The notes beneath the pieces were generated by a model, which saw only the letters and a list, made by a program, of their open reading frames with translations, was not told where the DNA came from and did no database searches. The position numbers and the translations under genes are program-made. A stretch of 64,000 nt of DNA from Patescibacteria group bacterium. GTDB taxonomy: Bacteria > Patescibacteriota > Microgenomatia > JAMCZE01. The stretch lies in the NCBI GenBank assembly GCA_023485845.1, contig JAMCZE010000004.1:1358-65357 (forward strand). The letters are read 5' to 3'. Below are positions 7,260-60,560 of this stretch, piece by piece; within the stretch, counting starts at the first letter, position 1; the number at the start of each line of letters is the position of its first letter.

Positions 7260-8451
7260 TTGGTGGCAAAGCGGCCTTATGGGAACGGGGACTGTGGTCA
7301 ATTCCCTGCTGGGGTTGGGGTTTTATGTCCTGGTGGCCCGGGGACTGGGAGTGGCCGCCTTTGGTTATTTCTCTTTCCTGCTTGGCCTGGGGATGTTGGC
7401 CTCGGAACTGGGGGACTTAGGCGTTTCCAGTGCCCTGGTGCGTTTTGGCGCCAGGGCAAAGTTTCCGGCGGCATTTTCCCTGGCCACGGCCCAGCGGCTG
7501 ACGGTGAGTTTAGCTATTATTTTGATTTTTCTTGTCGCCTCGATGGTTTTTGACCATCGGTTAATTTACAGCGCCGCGGTGGCGGTCACCCTGTTGTTAG
7601 TCAACCTGATCACCCAGTCCTTTATCGCCCAGGAAAAATATCCCTGGTTTGTGGCGGTGAACATCGGCGGCAACACTGCCCGGTTAGCCTTAACGGCCTG
7701 GTTGATGTTTGCCGCACTGTTGACTCCCACCTCGGCCTTGGTGGTTTTCTGCCTGGGAGGAGCCTTTTCATTTTTGCCGGGTTTAGCTTGGCTGGTGGTT
7801 TGCTACCGCCGGAAACTTTTCGATCTATCCGGGGCCAAAGCCCAACTGTTGGACTTTTTCCACTTTTCCAAGTGGCTGGCGGCTTCTTTCGGGGTGGTGT
7901 CCCTGTCTTCCCGGCTGGACATCCCCATTGTTTTTGCCTTGGCCGGGCCGGCGGCGGCGGGAATCTATTCTTCCGCCCAAAAATTAACGTCCTTTTTGCC
8001 GCAAATCAGCGCTAACCTGGAGGGCGTTTTTGCTCCCAAGTTCGCCAATGCCACCGCCTTCAAGCGCGATTTTCGCGATTTTTTGGTGGTCTCCGTTCTA
8101 ATTTCCCTGGGCCTTTTGGCAGCGATTTTTCTGGCCCCGTTACTGATCACCCTGGTTTTTGGGGCATCCTATCAAGCGTCAATTCCCATTTTCCAACTGC
8201 TGCTGGTGGGATTGGCCGTTTTTTTCCTGTTTGGCCCGGCCAACAGCGCCGTAGTCTACCGGTTTTCCCGGCCGAATTTTCATCTTATTGGTTCCGTTAT
8301 CCAGCTGATCGTCTCCCTAGCACTCTATTTTGCCTTGGTGCCGTCGTTAGGAGCCGCCGGAGCGGCTCTGGCAGCAATCGCTTCTAACATCGCCGCGTTG
8401 ATTTTCTTCTGGACGCTGTTTTTGCGCCTTTCCCAGTCCTATGAACCATAA
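7243..8451 (+). CDS. Polysaccharide biosynthesis protein / Wzx-type oligosaccharide flippase (MOP superfamily)
   Basis: 402 aa, about 12 TM helices, with the N-terminal pattern typical of Wzx flippases (VNSLLGLGFYVLVARGLG...FGYFSF). Confidence 0.7.
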   Translation: MKLRASWWQSGLMGTGTVVNSLLGLGFYVLVARGLGVAAFGYFSFLLGLGMLASELGDLGVSSALVRFGARAKFPAAFSLATAQRLTVSLAIILIFLVASMVFDHRLIYSAAVAVTLLLVNLITQSFIAQEKYPWFVAVNIGGNTARLALTAWLMFAALLTPTSALVVFCLGGAFSFLPGLAWLVVCYRRKLFDLSGAKAQLLDFFHFSKWLAASFGVVSLSSRLDIPIVFALAGPAAAGIYSSAQKLTSFLPQISANLEGVFAPKFANATAFKRDFRDFLVVSVLISLGLLAAIFLAPLLITLVFGASYQASIPIFQLLLVGLAVFFLFGPANSAVVYRFSRPNFHLIGSVIQLIVSLALYFALVPSLGAAGAALAAIASNIAALIFFWTLFLRLSQSYEP

Positions 8452-11649: not shown

Positions 11650-12663
11650 ATGAAAATCGCTTTCTTGAATTTGTATAGTGGGGTGAACAATCGGGGAGCG
11701 GAAACTTTTGCTCACGAACTTGCCAGGAGACTTGGAAAAAACCATGAAGTCAAATTCTACCGTGGCGCTGATTATAACCTAAAAGTTGTCCAATCTGAGC
11801 ATAATTCCCGAAACTTACTAAAACGCTTCTTTCTTGACGGAGCCAACTTGTCAGTTCTACAGTTTTCTTGGAAAATCTTTCCAATATTACGGCGAGAGAA
11901 ATATGACTGGGTAATTCCTATAAACGGTTTTTGGCAGGTGTTGCTGTGTAAGTTGTTGCCAAGCAAGATCCTAATTACCGGGCACTCCGGTCCCGGTTGG
12001 GATGAGCGCTGGAATCTTTATTTAAAACCGGATGTTTTTGTTGCCACCACAGAGCCGACGGAGAAATGGGCGAAAAGAACTTGTCCTTGGACAAAGATTG
12101 TGACCATTCCGTATGGCATTGATATGGGCTTGTTTGCAAAAGCAAAGCCGGTGAAAATTAATTTGCCCCGTCCGGTTATCTTGTGTGATGCCGCTGCGGT
12201 TGAATATAAGCGAATTGATCTGGCGATTAAGGCGGTGGCCAAGTTGAAAAAAGCCAGCCTGCTGCATCTTGGCGCTGGTCCATTATTACCAAGCATTCAA
12301 GCTTTAGGGCGAGGACTTCTCGGCAATCGCTTCTTTAGCACGGCCGTCGCCTATAAAGAGATTCCAAACTATTTTGCCGCTTGTGATGTGGTGACACTTC
12401 CCTCCATGTCCCAAGAGAATTCACCAATAGTCTTTCTTGAGGCAATGGCAGCGGGAAAACCGGTGGTGACGACGGATGCTCCCCGGTCACGTTGGACCTT
12501 GGGACCAGCCGCTCTCTACGTTGACCCGCGAAATCTTGACGAATATGCCCAGGCATTGGTGAAGAGCGAGAAACTTGATAGGGAACTTATTGCTAGTCAG
12601 GCACAGAAGTTTTCCTGGGACAAAATCGCAGCCCAATATGAAAATCTCATTGAGTCAAATTAA
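11650..12663 (+). CDS. GT4 glycosyltransferase (tandem paralog of the previous gene)
   Basis: MKIAFLNLYSG...FLEAMAAGKPVVTTD; same architecture as 10542..11645. Confidence 0.8.
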   Translation: MKIAFLNLYSGVNNRGAETFAHELARRLGKNHEVKFYRGADYNLKVVQSEHNSRNLLKRFFLDGANLSVLQFSWKIFPILRREKYDWVIPINGFWQVLLCKLLPSKILITGHSGPGWDERWNLYLKPDVFVATTEPTEKWAKRTCPWTKIVTIPYGIDMGLFAKAKPVKINLPRPVILCDAAAVEYKRIDLAIKAVAKLKKASLLHLGAGPLLPSIQALGRGLLGNRFFSTAVAYKEIPNYFAACDVVTLPSMSQENSPIVFLEAMAAGKPVVTTDAPRSRWTLGPAALYVDPRNLDEYAQALVKSEKLDRELIASQAQKFSWDKIAAQYENLIESN

Positions 12664-13579
12664 AATATCAGTTGTGATCCCGACTTATAACGAAGAGAAG
12701 GTCATCGGTAATTGTTTGGCCAGTTTGGCAAAACAAACGGTGGTTAAGGACATGGAGATTATCGTCGTTGATGACGGATCATCGGACACCTCGGTGTCCG
12801 TAATTTCGAATTTCGAATTTCGAATTTCGAATTTGGTTTTGCTAAAGCAAAACCATATGGGTCCCGGGGCAGCAAGAAATCTGGGGGCCGGCAAAGCAAA
12901 AGGGGACATCCTGGTTTTTGTCGACGCGGACATGGAGTTTGCATCGGATTTTGTTGAAAAACTTGTTGCCCCAATTACTGCTGGGAAAACAATTGGAACT
13001 TATAGCGAAGATGAGTTTCTTCTAAACAAGAGCCAACCATTAGCGCGTTGTTGGAATTGGAATTTTGGCCGGAGCGCAAACAAAATGGAGCCACGCGGCT
13101 ATGCTGCAAAACCATCGGGGATATACAAATTTGGAAAAGATGTCCTGGAGAAAATTGAGGGAGTTAAAGCCAGAGAAGAAAAAAATCAAGTTTTCCGGGC
13201 GATACTAAAAAGTTCATTTCAAGAAGCGGGAGGGTTCGATTCTAAATTGGGTTATATTGATGATTGGAGTGTTTCACAAAAATTGGGAAAGTTTCCAGAA
13301 TTGGCGAAGGGGGCGATTTATTATCATCGAAGTCCGGATAATCTTCCGGAAATTTGGAGGCAAGCGAGATGGTTCGGGAAAAATTATTTCTTGACAAAAA
13401 ATCTGGTTCGCAAGCTTTACAATTTATTTCGTTATTGCCCTATTCTGGCTCCCATTAAGGGAATATATGGAGCAGTCAAGTTTAAGGAGATAAGTTTTAT
13501 TTATTTTAAAGTAGTTTTTGACTCGGCGGTCTTCACAAGCGTGCTCTTGTCGTTTTTGAGTGAGCAAAAATATAAGTAG
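12638..13579 (+). CDS. GT2 family glycosyltransferase
   Basis: ISVVIPTYNEEKVI...VVDDGSSD...VFVDADMEF; start ATG overlaps upstream stop by 26 nt. Confidence 0.75.
   Translation: MKISLSQIKISVVIPTYNEEKVIGNCLASLAKQTVVKDMEIIVVDDGSSDTSVSVISNFEFRISNLVLLKQNHMGPGAARNLGAGKAKGDILVFVDADMEFASDFVEKLVAPITAGKTIGTYSEDEFLLNKSQPLARCWNWNFGRSANKMEPRGYAAKPSGIYKFGKDVLEKIEGVKAREEKNQVFRAILKSSFQEAGGFDSKLGYIDDWSVSQKLGKFPELAKGAIYYHRSPDNLPEIWRQARWFGKNYFLTKNLVRKLYNLFRYCPILAPIKGIYGAVKFKEISFIYFKVVFDSAVFTSVLLSFLSEQKYK
12802..12834. repeat. Tandem heptanucleotide repeat (AATTTCG)x4 plus partial copy, inside the GT2 coding sequence
   Basis: gtAATTTCGAATTTCGAATTTCGAATTTCGAATTTgg. It creates four TTCGAA palindromes at 7-nt spacing and encodes SNFEFRISN. 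Confidence 0.9.
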
Positions 13580-43493: not shown

Positions 43494-44705
43494 ATGAAGA
43501 CGGCCATTTTAGGCTGGGGGGTGGACACACAGGACGTGGAGCCGTATTTGCGAAAGCGGGGAGACGAGGTTACGGTCTTGGATGAGAAAAACGGTGATAA
43601 ATTTGCTAATCTTCAAAGATTTGATTTGATTATAAGAAGTCCGGGAGTCTACCGTTTCCGGCCGGAGATTCTCCAAGCACAAAAAGCCGGGGTGGAAATT
43701 TCTTCCAAAACAAAACTCTTTTTTGATCTTTGTCCTTGTCCGATTATCGGCATCACCGGGACCAAGGGCAAAGGCACCACCGCTACTTTAATTTATGAAA
43801 TTCTCAAAGCGGCTGGTAAAAAAGTTTATTTAGGCGGCAACATTGGCACGGGAGTGTTCAATCTATTAGAAAATTTAACCAAGGACAGTTGGGTAATTTT
43901 AGAGCTATCCAGTTTTCAATTAATCGACCTAACAAAATCGCCGCATATCGCTGTGGTGTTGATAGTCACCAGTGAGCACCTTAACTGGCACAAAAACACC
44001 AAAGAATATATTGATGCCAAGAGAAACATAGTTTCTCACCAAAAACCGGATGATTTTGCCGTGGTAAACCGGGATTATCCCAACTCGGTGGTCATCGGCA
44101 AAGCCGCCACCGGCCAGGTCACTTGGGTCAGTGGAAAAGACATCAATCTGTCCACCCGTCTTCGCGGGCAGCATAATAAAGAAAATATTGCTGCCGCCGT
44201 GGCAGTGGCCAAAATCGTTGGCGTTGCCTATGAAGAAGTGGTCAAAGACTTTAGGGGTTTGGAGCACCGGCTGGAAGAGGTGGCCACGATTAACGGGGTT
44301 GCATTCTTTAATGATTCTTTTTCCACTGTTCCGGAAACCACGATTGCTGCCATCAAGTCGTTTGTCGAGCCGGAAATTTTGATCGTTGGCGGCAGCAGCA
44401 AAAATTCCGATTTCACCCAGTTAGGGACAGTCATCTCCCGAACACCCAACATTAAAGCGGTGATGCCAATTGGTGTTGAGGGTGAGCGGATTAAAAAACT
44501 TCTTTCTGGAGTAAAAATTTTGCCAGCAGGGAAAACAATGGCGGAAATAGTGAAAATAGCGTATAATAACGCTGTGTCTGGTGATGTTGTTTTGCTTTCT
44601 CCTGCCTGCGCCAGTTTTGATATGTTTAAAAACTACAAGCATAGGGGAAAACAGTTCAAACACGAAATTCAAAATTTAAAGGTCAAAAGTCAAAAATCCA
44701 AGTAA
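43494..44705 (+). CDS. murD: UDP-N-acetylmuramoylalanine--D-glutamate ligase MurD
   Basis: GITGTKGKGTT, GGNIG motifs; 403 aa. Confidence 0.85.
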   Translation: MKTAILGWGVDTQDVEPYLRKRGDEVTVLDEKNGDKFANLQRFDLIIRSPGVYRFRPEILQAQKAGVEISSKTKLFFDLCPCPIIGITGTKGKGTTATLIYEILKAAGKKVYLGGNIGTGVFNLLENLTKDSWVILELSSFQLIDLTKSPHIAVVLIVTSEHLNWHKNTKEYIDAKRNIVSHQKPDDFAVVNRDYPNSVVIGKAATGQVTWVSGKDINLSTRLRGQHNKENIAAAVAVAKIVGVAYEEVVKDFRGLEHRLEEVATINGVAFFNDSFSTVPETTIAAIKSFVEPEILIVGGSSKNSDFTQLGTVISRTPNIKAVMPIGVEGERIKKLLSGVKILPAGKTMAEIVKIAYNNAVSGDVVLLSPACASFDMFKNYKHRGKQFKHEIQNLKVKSQKSK

Positions 44706-44745
44706 AAAGTCAAAATTTTGCCTTTTGATTTTTGCATTTTAATTT

Positions 44746-51115: not shown

Positions 51116-52200
51116 AAAAGATTTTTATCACCGGGGGACATTTTGCGCCGGCGAAAGCAGTGATTCAAGAGTTGAGCAAAAGGGCAAGTTGGGAGATCTT
51201 TTATCTTGGCCGCAAGCACAGCATGGAAGATGACAAAGCGGTGGCCTTGGAATATTCGGAAATTCAGGCCATGCAAAATGTCACCTATTTAACTATCACT
51301 ACTGGCCGGCTCCAGCGGCAATTTTTTGTCAACGTTTTTCAATCGGTGAAAGCAGTTTTAAAGGTCGTGATCGGCCTGACTCAATCCCCGTTTTGGCTGA
51401 TTAAATATCGGCCCAATGTGATTCTTTCTTTTGGCGGCTATGTGGCCGTGCCGGTGGTTTTCTGGGCTTGGGTGTTTCGCCTTAAAATTTTTACCCACGA
51501 ACAAACCACGGTTTATGGCCGGTCCAATAAATTCATTTCCCTTCTGGCCGATAAAATTCTGGTCTCCTGGCCGGAAAGCCTCCAGCATTTTCCCGCCAAT
51601 CGCGTTATCTTAACCGGCAATCCTCTCCGCGAAGAAATTCTTCGCCAACGACCAACGGCCAACGACCAACGGCCAACGATTTATGTCACCGGGGGAAGTC
51701 AAGGAGCGCATGTAATTAATATTGCCATTGAAAAAATTCTGCCGGAACTGGTGAAAAAATATCAGGTTATTTACCAAACCGGCGATGCCGGCCGCTATCA
51801 TGATTATGAACGGCTGGTAAAGTTAGAATCAAAACGTTATATCGTTCGGCGGCAGTTTAGTGGATTGGAGAGTGCTGACGCTCTTGCCAAAGCCACCTTA
51901 ATCATCAGCCGGGCGGGAGCCAACACCGTTTGTGAAATTCTGGCGCTGGGGAAGATGGCAATTTTAATTCCCCTGCCCTATTCTTTTGAACATGAACAGG
52001 AGAAGAATGGGCAGATGGTGGCCGGCGCCGGCCTGGGTGAAGTTTTGCCCCAGGAGGATTTAACCCCCAAAAAACTACTTTCGTTAATTGAGGATATGCT
52101 GACAAATAAAGACCGTTATCTTTCCCACGTCTCTTCCGCCAAAAAACTCGTCTCTCTCTCCGCCGCCCAAAAAATCGTCGAAGAGTTGGGAAAAACCTGA
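51112..52200 (+). CDS. murG: UDP-GlcNAc:undecaprenyl-PP-MurNAc-pentapeptide GlcNAc transferase MurG
   Basis: MKKIFITGGHFAPA..., GGSQGA motif. Confidence 0.85.
   Translation: MKKIFITGGHFAPAKAVIQELSKRASWEIFYLGRKHSMEDDKAVALEYSEIQAMQNVTYLTITTGRLQRQFFVNVFQSVKAVLKVVIGLTQSPFWLIKYRPNVILSFGGYVAVPVVFWAWVFRLKIFTHEQTTVYGRSNKFISLLADKILVSWPESLQHFPANRVILTGNPLREEILRQRPTANDQRPTIYVTGGSQGAHVINIAIEKILPELVKKYQVIYQTGDAGRYHDYERLVKLESKRYIVRRQFSGLESADALAKATLIISRAGANTVCEILALGKMAILIPLPYSFEHEQEKNGQMVAGAGLGEVLPQEDLTPKKLLSLIEDMLTNKDRYLSHVSSAKKLVSLSAAQKIVEELGKT
51645..51679. repeat. Tandem repeat (CCAACGR)x5 inside murG (encodes QRPTANDQRPT)
   Basis: ccaacgaccaacggccaacgaccaacggccaacga. Confidence 0.85.
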
Positions 52201-55388: not shown

Positions 55389-58244
55389 ATGTTTAAGCCG
55401 GTTGATCCAAAAGTGAACTTTGCCGAAATGGAGAAGGGGATTTTGGCGTGGTGGGACCAAGCGGGGGTCGTTAATAAATACCTCCATAAAAACGATCAGG
55501 CAAAAAAAAAGTTTTCTTTTCTGGACGGCCCGATCACGGCTAATAATCCGATGGGTGTCCACCATGCCTGGGGCCGGACTTATAAGGACCTTTGGCAGCG
55601 CTACCACAATATGCTCGGAGAGAAAGGCCGCTTCCAAAACGGCTTTGACTGCCAGGGCCTTTGGGTGGAAGTGGAAGTGGAAAAGGAACTTGGCTTTAAA
55701 TCAAAGAAAGACATCGAAACCTACGGAATTGCCAACTTCGTGAACAAATGCAAGGAGCGGGTGATTAAATACTCCGGCATCCAAACAGAACAGAGCAAAC
55801 GGCTGGGCTATTTTATGGACTGGGACCATTCCTATTTCACCATGTCCGAAGAAAATAACTACGCGATTTGGAATTTTCTGAAAGTTTGCGCCGACCGCGG
55901 TTGGATCTACAAAGGACATGAATCCATTCCCTGGTGCCCCCGCTGCGAAACGGCCATTTCTCAGCATGAAATCCTCACCGAGGACTATAAAGAAATTACC
56001 CACGAGTCAATCATTTTGGAATTTCCGATTGTTGGCCATGACCGGGAGTTTCTTTTGGTCTGGACAACCACTCCTTGGACCATTCCCGCGAATATCGCCG
56101 TTGCCGTTGATGAAAAGCAAGATTATAGCCTGGTTAAAGGCGGGGACGGCAATAAATTCTGGTTGGCAAAAAACCTGGTTGATAGCGTTTTCAAAAACAG
56201 TCAGAAAGAGGTTTTAAAGACAGTTAAAGGCAGGGAGCTGGCGGGATTGAAATACACCGGGCCGTTCGACGATTTGGAAGCAGTGGCTAAGGCGGCCAAG
56301 GAAAATGAGACAAAATTCCACATTGTCGTGCCCACTGACGATCAAATAATGCCTATTTCCATGGAGGAAGGAACCGGTTTGGTGCACACAGCAGTCAGTG
56401 CCGGTGAAGAGGATTTTAAATTGGGGAAAAAGCTAGGTTTGCCGATGATTCCGGTGATTGCCGATAATGCCGATTATCTTCCCGGTTTAGGACGGTTTTC
56501 CGGACAAAATGCCAAAAAGAACCCGCGATTGATCCTCGATTATCTTGAAGAACGAGAAAAATCAGGTAAAGATACAGTTTTTTCAATTTTCTCTTACACC
56601 CATCGTTATCCCGCTTGTTGGCGGTGCAAAACGGAGTTGGTTTGGAAGGTGGCCGATGAATGGTATATTGCCATGGACCGGCCTGACAAAAGCGGGAAAA
56701 CACTGCGGGAGCAGCTTAAAACGGTGACAAAAAAAATAAACTGGCGGCCTGCCTTTGGTCTTGATCGGGAATTGGACTGGTTGGAGAATATGCATGATTG
56801 GCTGATTTCCAAGAAGAATCGTTATTGGGGCCTAGCGCTGCCAATTTATGAATGCCTCAAGTGCGGCCATTTTGAAGTGATCAGAAGTAAAGAAGAGCTA
56901 AAAAAGCGGGCCGTCAGCGGTTGGGAAAAATTTGAGGGCAACACTCCCCACCGTCCCTGGATTGATGAAGTGAAAATTAAATGCACCGGATGTGGAGAAG
57001 TTGTTTCCCGGATTTTGGATGTGGGCAATCCCTGGCTGGATGCTGGCATTGTGTCCGTTTCCACCATGCCGCAGGACTGGTTTCCGGCCGATTTTATCAC
57101 CGAGTCTTTCCCGGGCCAGTTTAAAAACTGGTTCTATTCTTTGATTGTGATGGGAATGGTGCTGCGAAAAACTAACCCGTTTAAAACAGTTCTTGGTTTT
57201 GGCACGCTTTTGGGGGAAGATGGCCGGCCGATGCATAAGTCCTGGGGCAACTCCATTGAATTTAACGAAGGGGCGGATAAAATTGGTGTTGATGTGATGC
57301 GCTGGATGTATGCCACCCACCAGCCGGAAGAGAACCTTTTGTTTGGCTACCGGGTGGCCGATGAAACCCGGCGCAAGTTTCATCTGATGCTTTGGAATGT
57401 TTACAACTTTTTCGTTACATATGCTAATTTATCGGGTTGGGATAATAGCTTCAAGAGACCACCTCTCTTGAAGCTGGATGAATGGATTCTGGTCCGATTG
57501 GAGGAAACGATCAATAAAGTGACTAAGTCCCTGGATCAATATGATGCCTATCGCGCCAGCACGGCCATTGCCGCTTTTGTTGAAGATCTATCATTGTGGT
57601 ATGTTCGCCGGAGCCGGGACCGGCTGGGACCGGAATTTTTCAATACCTGCTATCGGGTTTTGGTGACCTTATGCCAACTTCTGGCTCCGTTCACGCCGTT
57701 TATTGCCGAAGAAATGTATAAAAACTTGACCGGGGAGGAGAGTGTGCATCTCACAAAATGGCCACGAGCAGGAAAGCAGGAAAGCAGGAAAGCAGGAAAG
57801 CTAATTGAAGAAATGACACTAGTCAGGAAAGTTTGCGAGATTGGGCACGCCAAGCGCAAAGAAGCGGGGATTAAAGTGAGACAGCCGCTGGCGAAATTTA
57901 CAATTTTCAGCCCGCCTGCCGGACGGGCAGGTTCTCAATTTTCAATGAATGACCAATTGATCCAATTAATCAAGGACGAACTAAATGTTAAAGAAGTTGT
58001 TTGGAAAAAGGGGGAAGAATTAGCGGTGGAGTTGGATACAAAGTTGACGCCGGAGTTGGAGGCGGAAGGAAGAGCCCGGGAAATTGTCCGGCAGATTCAG
58101 GACGCGCGCAAAGAAGCGGGAACGGCGTTGGATCAAAAAATTAGCGTCACTTTGCCTGACTGGCCGGCGGCGTTTACAGACTACATTAAAAAAGAGACAT
58201 TAGCTATCAAACTCACAAAGGGGGACAAGTTTGAAATCGCTTGA
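55389..58244 (+). CDS. ileS: Isoleucyl-tRNA synthetase (type 2-like)
   Basis: FLDGPITANNPMGVHHAWG (HIGH region), GFDCQGLWVEVEVEKELG, WCPRCETAISQHE, MHKSWGNSI (KMSKS-like); 951 aa. Confidence 0.9.
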   Translation: MFKPVDPKVNFAEMEKGILAWWDQAGVVNKYLHKNDQAKKKFSFLDGPITANNPMGVHHAWGRTYKDLWQRYHNMLGEKGRFQNGFDCQGLWVEVEVEKELGFKSKKDIETYGIANFVNKCKERVIKYSGIQTEQSKRLGYFMDWDHSYFTMSEENNYAIWNFLKVCADRGWIYKGHESIPWCPRCETAISQHEILTEDYKEITHESIILEFPIVGHDREFLLVWTTTPWTIPANIAVAVDEKQDYSLVKGGDGNKFWLAKNLVDSVFKNSQKEVLKTVKGRELAGLKYTGPFDDLEAVAKAAKENETKFHIVVPTDDQIMPISMEEGTGLVHTAVSAGEEDFKLGKKLGLPMIPVIADNADYLPGLGRFSGQNAKKNPRLILDYLEEREKSGKDTVFSIFSYTHRYPACWRCKTELVWKVADEWYIAMDRPDKSGKTLREQLKTVTKKINWRPAFGLDRELDWLENMHDWLISKKNRYWGLALPIYECLKCGHFEVIRSKEELKKRAVSGWEKFEGNTPHRPWIDEVKIKCTGCGEVVSRILDVGNPWLDAGIVSVSTMPQDWFPADFITESFPGQFKNWFYSLIVMGMVLRKTNPFKTVLGFGTLLGEDGRPMHKSWGNSIEFNEGADKIGVDVMRWMYATHQPEENLLFGYRVADETRRKFHLMLWNVYNFFVTYANLSGWDNSFKRPPLLKLDEWILVRLEETINKVTKSLDQYDAYRASTAIAAFVEDLSLWYVRRSRDRLGPEFFNTCYRVLVTLCQLLAPFTPFIAEEMYKNLTGEESVHLTKWPRAGKQESRKAGKLIEEMTLVRKVCEIGHAKRKEAGIKVRQPLAKFTIFSPPAGRAGSQFSMNDQLIQLIKDELNVKEVVWKKGEELAVELDTKLTPELEAEGRAREIVRQIQDARKEAGTALDQKISVTLPDWPAAFTDYIKKETLAIKLTKGDKFEIA
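57768..57799. repeat. Tandem octanucleotide repeat (GCAGGAAA)x4 inside ileS (encodes AGKQESRKAGK)
   Basis: gcaggaaagcaggaaagcaggaaagcaggaaa. Confidence 0.85.
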
Positions 58245-59589: not shown

Positions 59590-60560
59590 AATATAAATTT
59601 ATCTTCGGGAATGCGCCGGAGCTGGCCCAAGCGGAACTGGAAGCTGTCAATCCAAAAGACAGTGACGATCCTCAAAAATCAATTAATCTGCTTGGCGGAA
59701 CGGTTAAGATTGTCCAGATTCTCCCACCGGATATTAAACTCTCGGAAGTGATTACGGGCGACTTTGGGGTTTCTGATTTAACCGGCAAGATCAACATCAC
59801 CAAACTTTGTAAGGATCTTAAAAACGAGACTAAACAGCGCTTTGTCCTGCCAAAACGGGGTGAAAGGCAGCTTTCCAGCGTGGTGGTGGCCAAACAGAAG
59901 CTGACAGAGCTAATAATCGGTGACGGCTGGACCGGCAAAACGGTGGCGGTTCAGGATTTTGAACAATGGAACCGGCGGGATTATGGCCGGCCGGCGGTGG
60001 AAGCTCACATTGGCATGCTGCCGCCAAAAGTGGCCCGGATGATGGTCAACCTCACAAATTCAAAAATCAAAAATCAAAGTGCAAAAGTCACAATTTTGGA
60101 TCCGTTTTGCGGAGTGGGGACAATTTTGTCAGAGGCGATGATGGTTGGTGCTGGAGTGATTGGTTCAGATAAAGACATCAAACAGGTTGAACGGTCAAAA
60201 AATAATCTTGAGTGGTTATCTATAACCTATCAACTAGAACCCAGCCGCTTTCAATTGCATGTGGCTGATGCCCGGAAAGTCAGCAAAGTTCTGCTGGCCG
60301 ACAGCGTTGACGCGATTGTGACGGAGCCGTTTTTGGGACCCGCGAATAACCAGATTTTAGAAAGCCTCTATTATGACAGTTTGCAAGATTGGCTAAAAGT
60401 CCTTCAGCCCGGCGGCCAGGTGGTGATTGCCCTGCCATTTTTCATGGTTGACAAAGAAAAACTTATGGGCTATAGTTTCCTTGGTGGACCATATCCATAT
60501 TTTCGTCCACAAGCAAAGATAAGAAGGTATATATGGCACATACAAAAGCTTCCGGCGTAA
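59586..60560 (+). CDS. Class I SAM-dependent RNA methyltransferase (UPF0020/RlmL-Trm11-like)
   Basis: PPKVARMMVNLT...ILDPFCGVGTILSEA...VTEPFLG; GTG start overlapping the rplU stop. Confidence 0.65.
   Translation: MKYKFIFGNAPELAQAELEAVNPKDSDDPQKSINLLGGTVKIVQILPPDIKLSEVITGDFGVSDLTGKINITKLCKDLKNETKQRFVLPKRGERQLSSVVVAKQKLTELIIGDGWTGKTVAVQDFEQWNRRDYGRPAVEAHIGMLPPKVARMMVNLTNSKIKNQSAKVTILDPFCGVGTILSEAMMVGAGVIGSDKDIKQVERSKNNLEWLSITYQLEPSRFQLHVADARKVSKVLLADSVDAIVTEPFLGPANNQILESLYYDSLQDWLKVLQPGGQVVIALPFFMVDKEKLMGYSFLGGPYPYFRPQAKIRRYIWHIQKLPA

Follow-up and report, generated by a model that had tools for sequence, protein, structure and literature searches.

Does a repeat of non-triplet unit length inside a glycosyltransferase gene make that gene a switch, or can such a repeat be a by-product of replication? 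The question is raised by a perfect heptanucleotide array within a GT2 gene of a Patescibacteria group bacterium. Patescibacteria live attached to host cells, and their surface variation is unstudied. We analyzed the array within the 64,000-nt stretch of DNA that contains it (hereafter the window, meaning the whole stretch), in which an initial annotation had singled it out as a candidate phase-variation tract.

A perfect heptanucleotide array lies within a GT2 glycosyltransferase gene

The tract occupies positions 12802-12834 of the forward strand and consists of four copies of AATTTCG followed by AATTT, i.e., 4.7 copies over 33 nt that contain four TTCGAA palindromes. Tandem Repeats Finder assigns it a period of 7, 100% matches, and a score of 66, near the top of the window, where only repeats of 21, 14, and 8 nt score higher (70-72). 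A 14-mer representing the double unit (AATTTCGAATTTCG, with at most one mismatch) occurs five times in the window versus 0.12 times expected from shuffles, and in none of 50 window shuffles did a period-7 array reach 11 self-matching positions. The tract spans codons 56-66 (ISNFEFRISNL), six codons past the DDGSSD motif. The initial annotation had described a 4.7-copy AATTTCG repeat with four TTCGAA palindromes at this location, encoding SNFEFRISN just after DDGSSD, and inspection of the sequence, Tandem Repeats Finder, and Pfam bear out each of these details.

The 3' end of the tract adjoins a palindrome, GGTTTTGCT-AA-AGCAAAACC, at positions 12835-12854 (forward strand). Folded as single-stranded DNA, the tract hairpin and this palindrome together reach -20.2 kcal/mol (z = -4.5). 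There was no Rfam match for the tract. A scan of JGI metagenomes for the tract end plus its conserved right flank (ATTTCRAATTTGGTTTTGCTA) gave two unrelated matches and no array, and the tract sequence used as a literal literature query returned unrelated primer matches only.

An assembly artifact, an alternative that the initial annotation had allowed for, can be rejected, as the array is present in independent Logan assemblies and in orthologs. Its edges are found in Logan contigs from three sequencing runs, the left edge in two of them, and the right edge read in one and placed by coordinate arithmetic in a third. The ISNFEFRISNL peptide is also encoded in two NCBI protein records, both in the 4.7-copy form.

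The intact allele is predicted to encode a normal GT-A enzyme

The host gene is an intact ORF at positions 12638-13579 (forward strand), 313 aa from its ATG, and it is assigned to GT2 (GT-A fold) by Pfam, family alignment, and an AF2 model. Logan gene calls begin at this ATG and NCBI records at a GTG at 12674 (301 aa); in an exact look-up on contigs, neither the 313-aa nor the 301-aa ON protein was on record. The ORF carries a Glycos_transf_2 domain (PF00535, 3e-31), and its homologs come from Patescibacteria and Microgenomates, the best full-length relatives being 63-69% identical. Both motifs of the family are present: the DDGSSD motif (D45-D50; 12770-12787, forward strand) lies directly upstream of the tract and the DAD (DxD) motif (D96-D98; 12923-12931, forward strand) downstream of it. 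D45, D46, and D96-A97-D98 do not vary in the family alignment, and every family-invariant column is present in the GT2 of the window.

The AF2 model (mean pLDDT 92, pTM 0.89) has a predicted Rossmann-like GT-A fold, and the protein matches chondroitin synthase (2z86) and other GT2 structures. Residues I56-L66 fall at the end of helix 52-57 (alpha2), in a surface loop (58-65), and on the first residue of strand 66-70 (beta3). Because the GT2 segment VISNFEFRISNLVLL aligns without gaps to ILQEHYANHPRVRFI of chondroitin synthase, we rejected the idea that the tract is an insertion into the GT-A fold; its 24-aa linker is also the commonest length in the family. Across 120 homologs, the linker from DDGS to H.GPG measures 13 aa in one large clade and 17, 19-24 (most commonly 24), 26, 28, or 31 aa in the others, and several length classes differ by 7 aa, which equals three units. 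The ON allele is predicted to encode a normal GT-A enzyme.

According to Pfam, the neighbors of GT2 (a DUF2079 gene, two GT4 genes, one gene without an assigned family, and a PMT_2 gene) form a surface-glycan cluster. More broadly, positions 1-22000 of the window make up one large glycan-assembly cluster with several PMT_2-type membrane glycosyltransferases, a Polysacc_synt flippase, GT2, GT4, and DUF2079. It is partly syntenic with the orthologous loci L127, L129, and L132.

A one-unit change in copy number is predicted to abolish the enzyme

We constructed alleles of different copy number in silico. An allele of 3.7 copies ends prematurely after 66 aa and one of 5.7 copies after 108 aa, and the frame is kept only at 1.7, 4.7, 7.7, and 10.7 copies. 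Any frameshifted allele would lack the DAD motif. The statement that gain or loss of a single unit would switch the enzyme off therefore stands in silico, and two hallmarks of a contingency locus are in place: a perfect repeat within an ORF, and a frameshift upon a change of one unit in either direction that abolishes the predicted product. An exact look-up of the predicted products of the 1.7- to 10.7-copy alleles among 15 billion proteins found none; the 313-aa ON form was absent as well, so this result is uninformative.

The analogy to SSR-switched surface glycosyltransferases that the initial annotation drew is also valid. As in Neisseria pglA, pglE, pglG, and pglH and in the H. influenzae hmw tracts, a surface-structure gene contains, or is preceded by, a non-triplet repeat whose change by one unit shifts the frame. 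The repeat of Neisseria pglE is itself a heptanucleotide. Neisseria pgl glycosyltransferases are phase-variable via repeat tracts (PMC11130364), and H. influenzae, which has heptanucleotide SSRs, carries an intragenic (AATTTTG)14 in hmw1A (PMC2651432). These precedents, and the finding that the first fifth of a glycosyltransferase gene from a glycan cluster contains a perfect non-triplet repeat, argue for a true contingency locus, in which selected, reversible one-unit slips would switch GT2 and so vary the surface glycan of an uncultured, episymbiotic Patescibacterium. On the other hand, H. influenzae heptanucleotide tracts that mediate or potentially mediate phase variation have 8-38 copies and vary between strains (PMC2651432), whereas the GT2 tract has only 4.7 copies and is constant across orthologs and assemblies. 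The wider window offers no company for it either: across the 64 kb, including ~20 kb of glycan genes, there are no poly-G/C runs of at least seven and no tetra- or pentanucleotide SSRs, i.e., no other classical phase-variation tracts.

The array site is shared among orthologs in both orientations

We recovered DNA for five orthologs of GT2 (L127, L118, L132, L128, and L129). Counting the window, the same site is occupied in four orthologs by ~4.5-4.7 copies of a heptamer, two arrays being in forward and two in reverse orientation, and the three measured arrays are 32-33 nt long. In L127 (P0022), the site reads GCATCCGC (AATTTCA)(AATTTCA)(AATTTAA)(AATTTCA)AATTT GGTTTTGCTA; its boundaries and its 4.7 copies equal those of the window, with A instead of G at the last unit position throughout. 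L118, a Woesebacteria locus with a syntenic GT4-GT2-PMT_2 arrangement, has the reverse-complement unit at 7322-7353, (GAAATTC)x4.6, encoding SEIRNSKFEIRK. L132 (P0045) likewise has a reverse-complement unit at about 2340-2375, (AATTCGA)x4.5, encoding IRNSIFEIRN. In the remaining two, L128 (7.1 copies) and L129 (7.6 copies), the heptamer array is longer and degenerate, at 74-76% matches.

The linker measures 24 aa in all four orthologs with ~4.5-4.7 copies. The peptide at the array site is not conserved (ISNFEFRISN versus EIRNSKFEIRK), whereas the DNA periodicity is; a perfect or nearly perfect array persists at one site of a surface-glycan gene across lineages whose proteins are 55-65% identical. 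The comparison suggests that what is conserved is the DNA periodicity plus a 24-aa linker, rather than a peptide. Because arrays in forward and reverse orientation share one site, the site is old and appears to be homogenized by misalignment: units are homogeneous within each lineage, which would require repeated misalignment events. The seamless replacement of a forward by a reverse array might have come about by inversion between palindromic TTCGAA cores or by quasi-palindrome template switching.

For a contingency locus, these data cut both ways, since four orthologs have retained a uniform array at one site, yet with the same copy number throughout. Strain-level comparison within orthologous clusters with imperfect arrays (P0004, P0025, and P0111) found identical linkers in all members, short members being truncated elsewhere.

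A short palindrome adjoins the 3' end of the array in each of these four orthologs, with arms of 9 bp in the window, 7 bp in L127, and 5 bp (CGTGC/GCACG) in L118, and as ATAGCTAT in L132. These palindromes consist of different coding sequences.

Assembly graphs break at the edges of the tract

Logan contigs from three runs (SRR10252151, SRR10267473, and SRR10278331) are 100% identical to the window over a total of ~73 kb. Logan assemblies are built with k = 31, and within an accession no 31-mer occurs twice (PMC12424806). The contigs break exactly 30 nt (k-1) into the tract. Two upstream contigs, L002 of SRR10267473 and L003 of SRR10278331, stop at window position 12831, and the downstream contig L001 (SRR10267473) starts at 12805; a 54,775-nt contig of SRR10252151 also starts at 12805, as derived from coordinates rather than from a direct reading of its end. 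Both edges are therefore represented in one run (SRR10267473) and one edge in each of the two others. Meanwhile, Logan contigs of two or three runs cross another array of the window, in murG, without a break, and two contigs also cross that in ileS (both arrays are described below).

A 33-nt tract cannot by itself branch a k = 31 graph, so additional 31-mers are needed, namely G(AATTTCG)4AA and TTCG(AATTTCG)3AATTTC. Both could be supplied by an allele of at least 5.7 copies, by another array of at least 35 nt, or by two separate arrays in the genome or community. Arrays of at least 35 nt are scarce (2 of 130 surveyed). The branching at both tract edges in an otherwise clonal population, and the ability of one longer allele to account for both branches, speak for a contingency locus; the option of an (AATTTCG)n locus elsewhere in the genome or community speaks against it, as does the fact that every resolved assembly has 4.7 copies and is in the ON frame. 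A minority allele of at least 5.7 copies is the simplest single cause of the break and would mean real on/off heterogeneity, but this break, the sole sign of varying copy number, is ambiguous. Copy-number heterogeneity at the GT2 tract is moderately favored but unproven.

AATTTCG arrays recur in essential genes of other genomes

To place the tract among repeats of its kind, we considered the window and other genomes in turn. Besides the GT2 tract, the window has only two long perfect non-triplet arrays, both similar to it in total length. A 36-nt array in murG (51644-51679, forward strand; Tandem Repeats Finder) is a perfect 14-mer of two alternating heptamers in 2.6 copies, encoding RQRPTANDQRPT, and a 35-nt array in ileS (57767-57801, forward strand; Tandem Repeats Finder) is a perfect octamer, (AGCAGGAA)x4.4. 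The heptamer inventory of the 64 kb thus comprises one AATTTCG array, one alternating-heptamer array, and weaker arrays at 44665-44745 and 60056-60078. The one at 44665-44745 is an imperfect, AAAGTCA-like heptamer array of ~7 copies. It makes up the C-terminal tail of a Mur ligase gene, continues into an inverted repeat in the intergenic region (AAAATTTTGCCTTTTGATTTTTGC), and has an identical counterpart in Logan contig L004.

An exact scan for (AATTTCG)3 in 185,579 species-representative genomes (GTDB) returned at least 120 stretches (L007-L126). Among the matches listed, the phyla include Acidobacteriota, Verrucomicrobiota, Planctomycetota, Desulfobacterota, and many Patescibacteria, with 6 to 10 or more AATTTCG loci in some MAGs. 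Tracts among these matches measure 21-38 nt; the modal length is 32 nt, and numbers fall off steeply beyond 34 nt, so that tracts are nearly always 34 nt or shorter. The initial annotation held that nothing comparable is known for CPR-type genomes. This is true of the literature searched, in which no paper linked phase variation to Patescibacteria, but not of the sequence data, since the AATTTCG tract is common in CPR genomes.

The genes that host the tract argue against a dedicated switch. Among the matches listed, in-frame tracts in Patescibacteria lie in genes for RecJ, TsaD, Fmt, a NUDIX hydrolase, LeuRS, an M1 peptidase, RecG, GPI, a GT4, and ArgRS. Glycosylation genes account for 3 of the 14 CPR hosts among these matches, a weak enrichment. 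Contingency loci would be expected in surface rather than housekeeping genes, but the AATTTCG tract occurs in TsaD, Fmt, ArgRS, LeuRS, RecG, and RecJ (L013, L017, L042, L065, L088, L007, and others), i.e., essential genes, which could not be switched, carry identical arrays. In this respect the GT2 tract departs from SSR phase-variation systems.

HMMER alignments to solved structures indicate what the arrays do to their host proteins. In LeuRS, the array residues EIKFEIRNSKFEIPVF stand in place of the native EILFPVEGKEVRIPVF without gaps, and in TsaD the native residues are likewise replaced without gaps. MurG is 3 aa shorter than the solved 3s2u, with no insertion at the array, and IleRS is 2 aa longer than the solved 8c8w, with no repeat-sized insertion. 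In all five tested cases (LeuRS, TsaD, MurG, IleRS, and GT2), native residues are replaced and nothing of repeat size is inserted.

Period 7 is not peculiar to one unit. In the 846 kb around the listed matches, we found 101 other perfect period-7 arrays and 41 of period 14, versus at most 10 for any other period. These neighboring heptamer arrays have diverse units and the same length ceiling. The GT2 tract accordingly shows what characterizes the heptanucleotide SSR class, a perfect 7-nt tandem unit in a setting where period 7 is over-represented relative to other periods. We also considered whether the unit is favored for being free of stop codons in six frames. AATTTCG is stop-free, but so are only 57 of the 101 other arrays versus 66% of random genomic heptamers, and we rejected this property as a general cause.

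Replication misalignment as the favored origin of the tract

We lean toward the reading that the GT2 tract is an incidental, slippage-prone member of the known heptanucleotide SSR class that arose from replication misalignment, with no need for selection for switching. Heptanucleotides are reportedly the most abundant class of SSRs with 5- to 11-nt units in most prokaryote genomes, and slippage tied to the polymerase footprint has been proposed as their cause (Mrazek, Guo and Shah 2007, as summarized in PMC4679880 and PMC4692102). The tract resembles long heptanucleotide SSRs described in prokaryotes (cyanobacterial STRR, Beggiatoaceae TAACTGA, and Xanthomonas/Nostoc GGGAATC): these too have perfect 7-nt units in few copies (2-6 per set for TAACTGA), an over-represented period 7, a scattered phylogeny, and inverted pairs, with polymerase slippage as the proposed cause. 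Known long heptanucleotide SSRs are described mainly as lying between genes, whereas AATTTCG arrays lie in coding sequence, including that of essential genes, and replace codons without a change in length; the hosts of the AATTTCG arrays also differ from those of the known heptanucleotide SSRs and are Patescibacteria, Acidobacteriota, Verrucomicrobiota, and Planctomycetota.

Another point of comparison is the in-ORF tandem repeats of Borgs, whose units are reportedly multiples of three. They resemble the GT2 tract in being perfect, recently homogenized, and a source of low-complexity protein segments; however, Borg repeats are reported to create new disordered regions, whereas the 7-nt array of GT2 replaces existing residues with no net change in length (bioRxiv 10.1101/2022.05.18.492195).

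If misalignment is indeed the source, arrays would arise and stay uniform through slipped-strand events and through templated misalignment, in which a neighboring unit is copied before the strand realigns. The quasi-palindromic TTCGAA hairpin and the adjoining palindrome probably assist this process. Arrays of this kind would overwrite ~11 codons of a structurally tolerant linker and leave its length unchanged, and the existence, unit, and length of the tract would then reflect the mutational process together with selection to keep the frame open and the linker at 24 aa. A one-unit slip would destroy GT2, so that, at the slippage rate we presume, the tract would be an incidental and revertible loss-of-function hotspot. 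We therefore regard it as no more than an incidental on/off hotspot; the sampled population may include a longer minority allele.

A contingency locus maintained by selection seems to us possible but doubtful. Selection for switching is not required, given arrays in essential genes, a constant copy number, a short tract, and no other phase-variation tracts in the window. What the initial annotation had proposed therefore survives in its mechanics, while the step from those mechanics to a contingency locus is weakened by the housekeeping-gene arrays, the constant ON copy number, the 4.7 copies, and the lack of poly-G/C or tetranucleotide tracts in the window. If reads were to confirm heterogeneity, GT2 would be the first surface-glycan gene of Patescibacteria found to be turned on and off by an SSR. 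For annotation, a non-triplet in-gene repeat taken alone is no evidence of a contingency locus.

We think it rather unlikely, though worth stating, that a heptamer-specific process writes perfect arrays of at most 34 nt in place and length-neutrally into tolerant coding segments, those of essential genes among them, across Patescibacteria and several other phyla, that it reuses the quasi-palindromic unit AATTTCG or its complement, that it has repeatedly rewritten the GT2 site in either orientation, and that stochastic ON/OFF variants of dispensable surface-glycan genes are its by-product. What invites such a proposal is that essential genes of many uncultured lineages contain the AATTTCG array in frame, with protein length unchanged and a limit of ~34 nt. 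We know of no established mechanism of length-neutral overwriting, and the literature searched gave no description of an in-frame, length-neutral heptamer-array pattern. Length-neutral, heptamer-specific, 34-nt-limited overwriting with a unit that recurs across phyla may be the more interesting lead. Were such a process real, it would provide the first phase-variation-like behavior in CPR bacteria. In-place heptamer arrays also bear on the origin of low-complexity loops in streamlined genomes.

It is improbable that the tract acts within coding sequence as a sequence-specific DNA or RNA element with a function of its own, whether an orientation-independent cluster of protein-binding or methylation sites (the four TTCGAA) or a hairpin that pauses replication, transcription, or translation. 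Such an element would fit a unit that occurs in both orientations at one GT2 site and recurs across phyla, the strong single-stranded fold (z = -4.5), and the inverted pairs of Acidobacteriota, which would form long stems. However, the tract matches nothing in Rfam, array host genes and positions are unrelated, and no cognate binding protein or methyltransferase was identified; because neighboring heptamer arrays use many unrelated units, a process is indicated rather than a recognized motif. That the peptide ISNFEFRISN is selected at the protein level, with the DNA periodicity a mere consequence, is very improbable: the single variant unit of L127 does restore a basic residue (K, versus R in the window and Q from the unit consensus) and the linker is held at 24 aa, but the orientation flips at the GT2 site disfavor this reading, as reverse-orientation orthologs encode a completely different peptide there, the tract region is a surface loop in the AF2 model, and peptide selection would give periodicities in multiples of 3 nt rather than a perfect 7-nt period.

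Arrays occur as inverted pairs in some phyla

MAGs of Acidobacteriota and Desulfobacterota contain arrays in inverted pairs, spaced 85-290 nt from each other, in which stems of ~30 bp are possible. Examples are L053 (4736-4917), L117 (1032-1202), and L100 (5092-5230), along with L028, L031, and L119. Such pairs may represent a MITE-like or structured-RNA element. Within Thermoanaerobaculia, the first array is often followed by a CCCACCC-rich motif.
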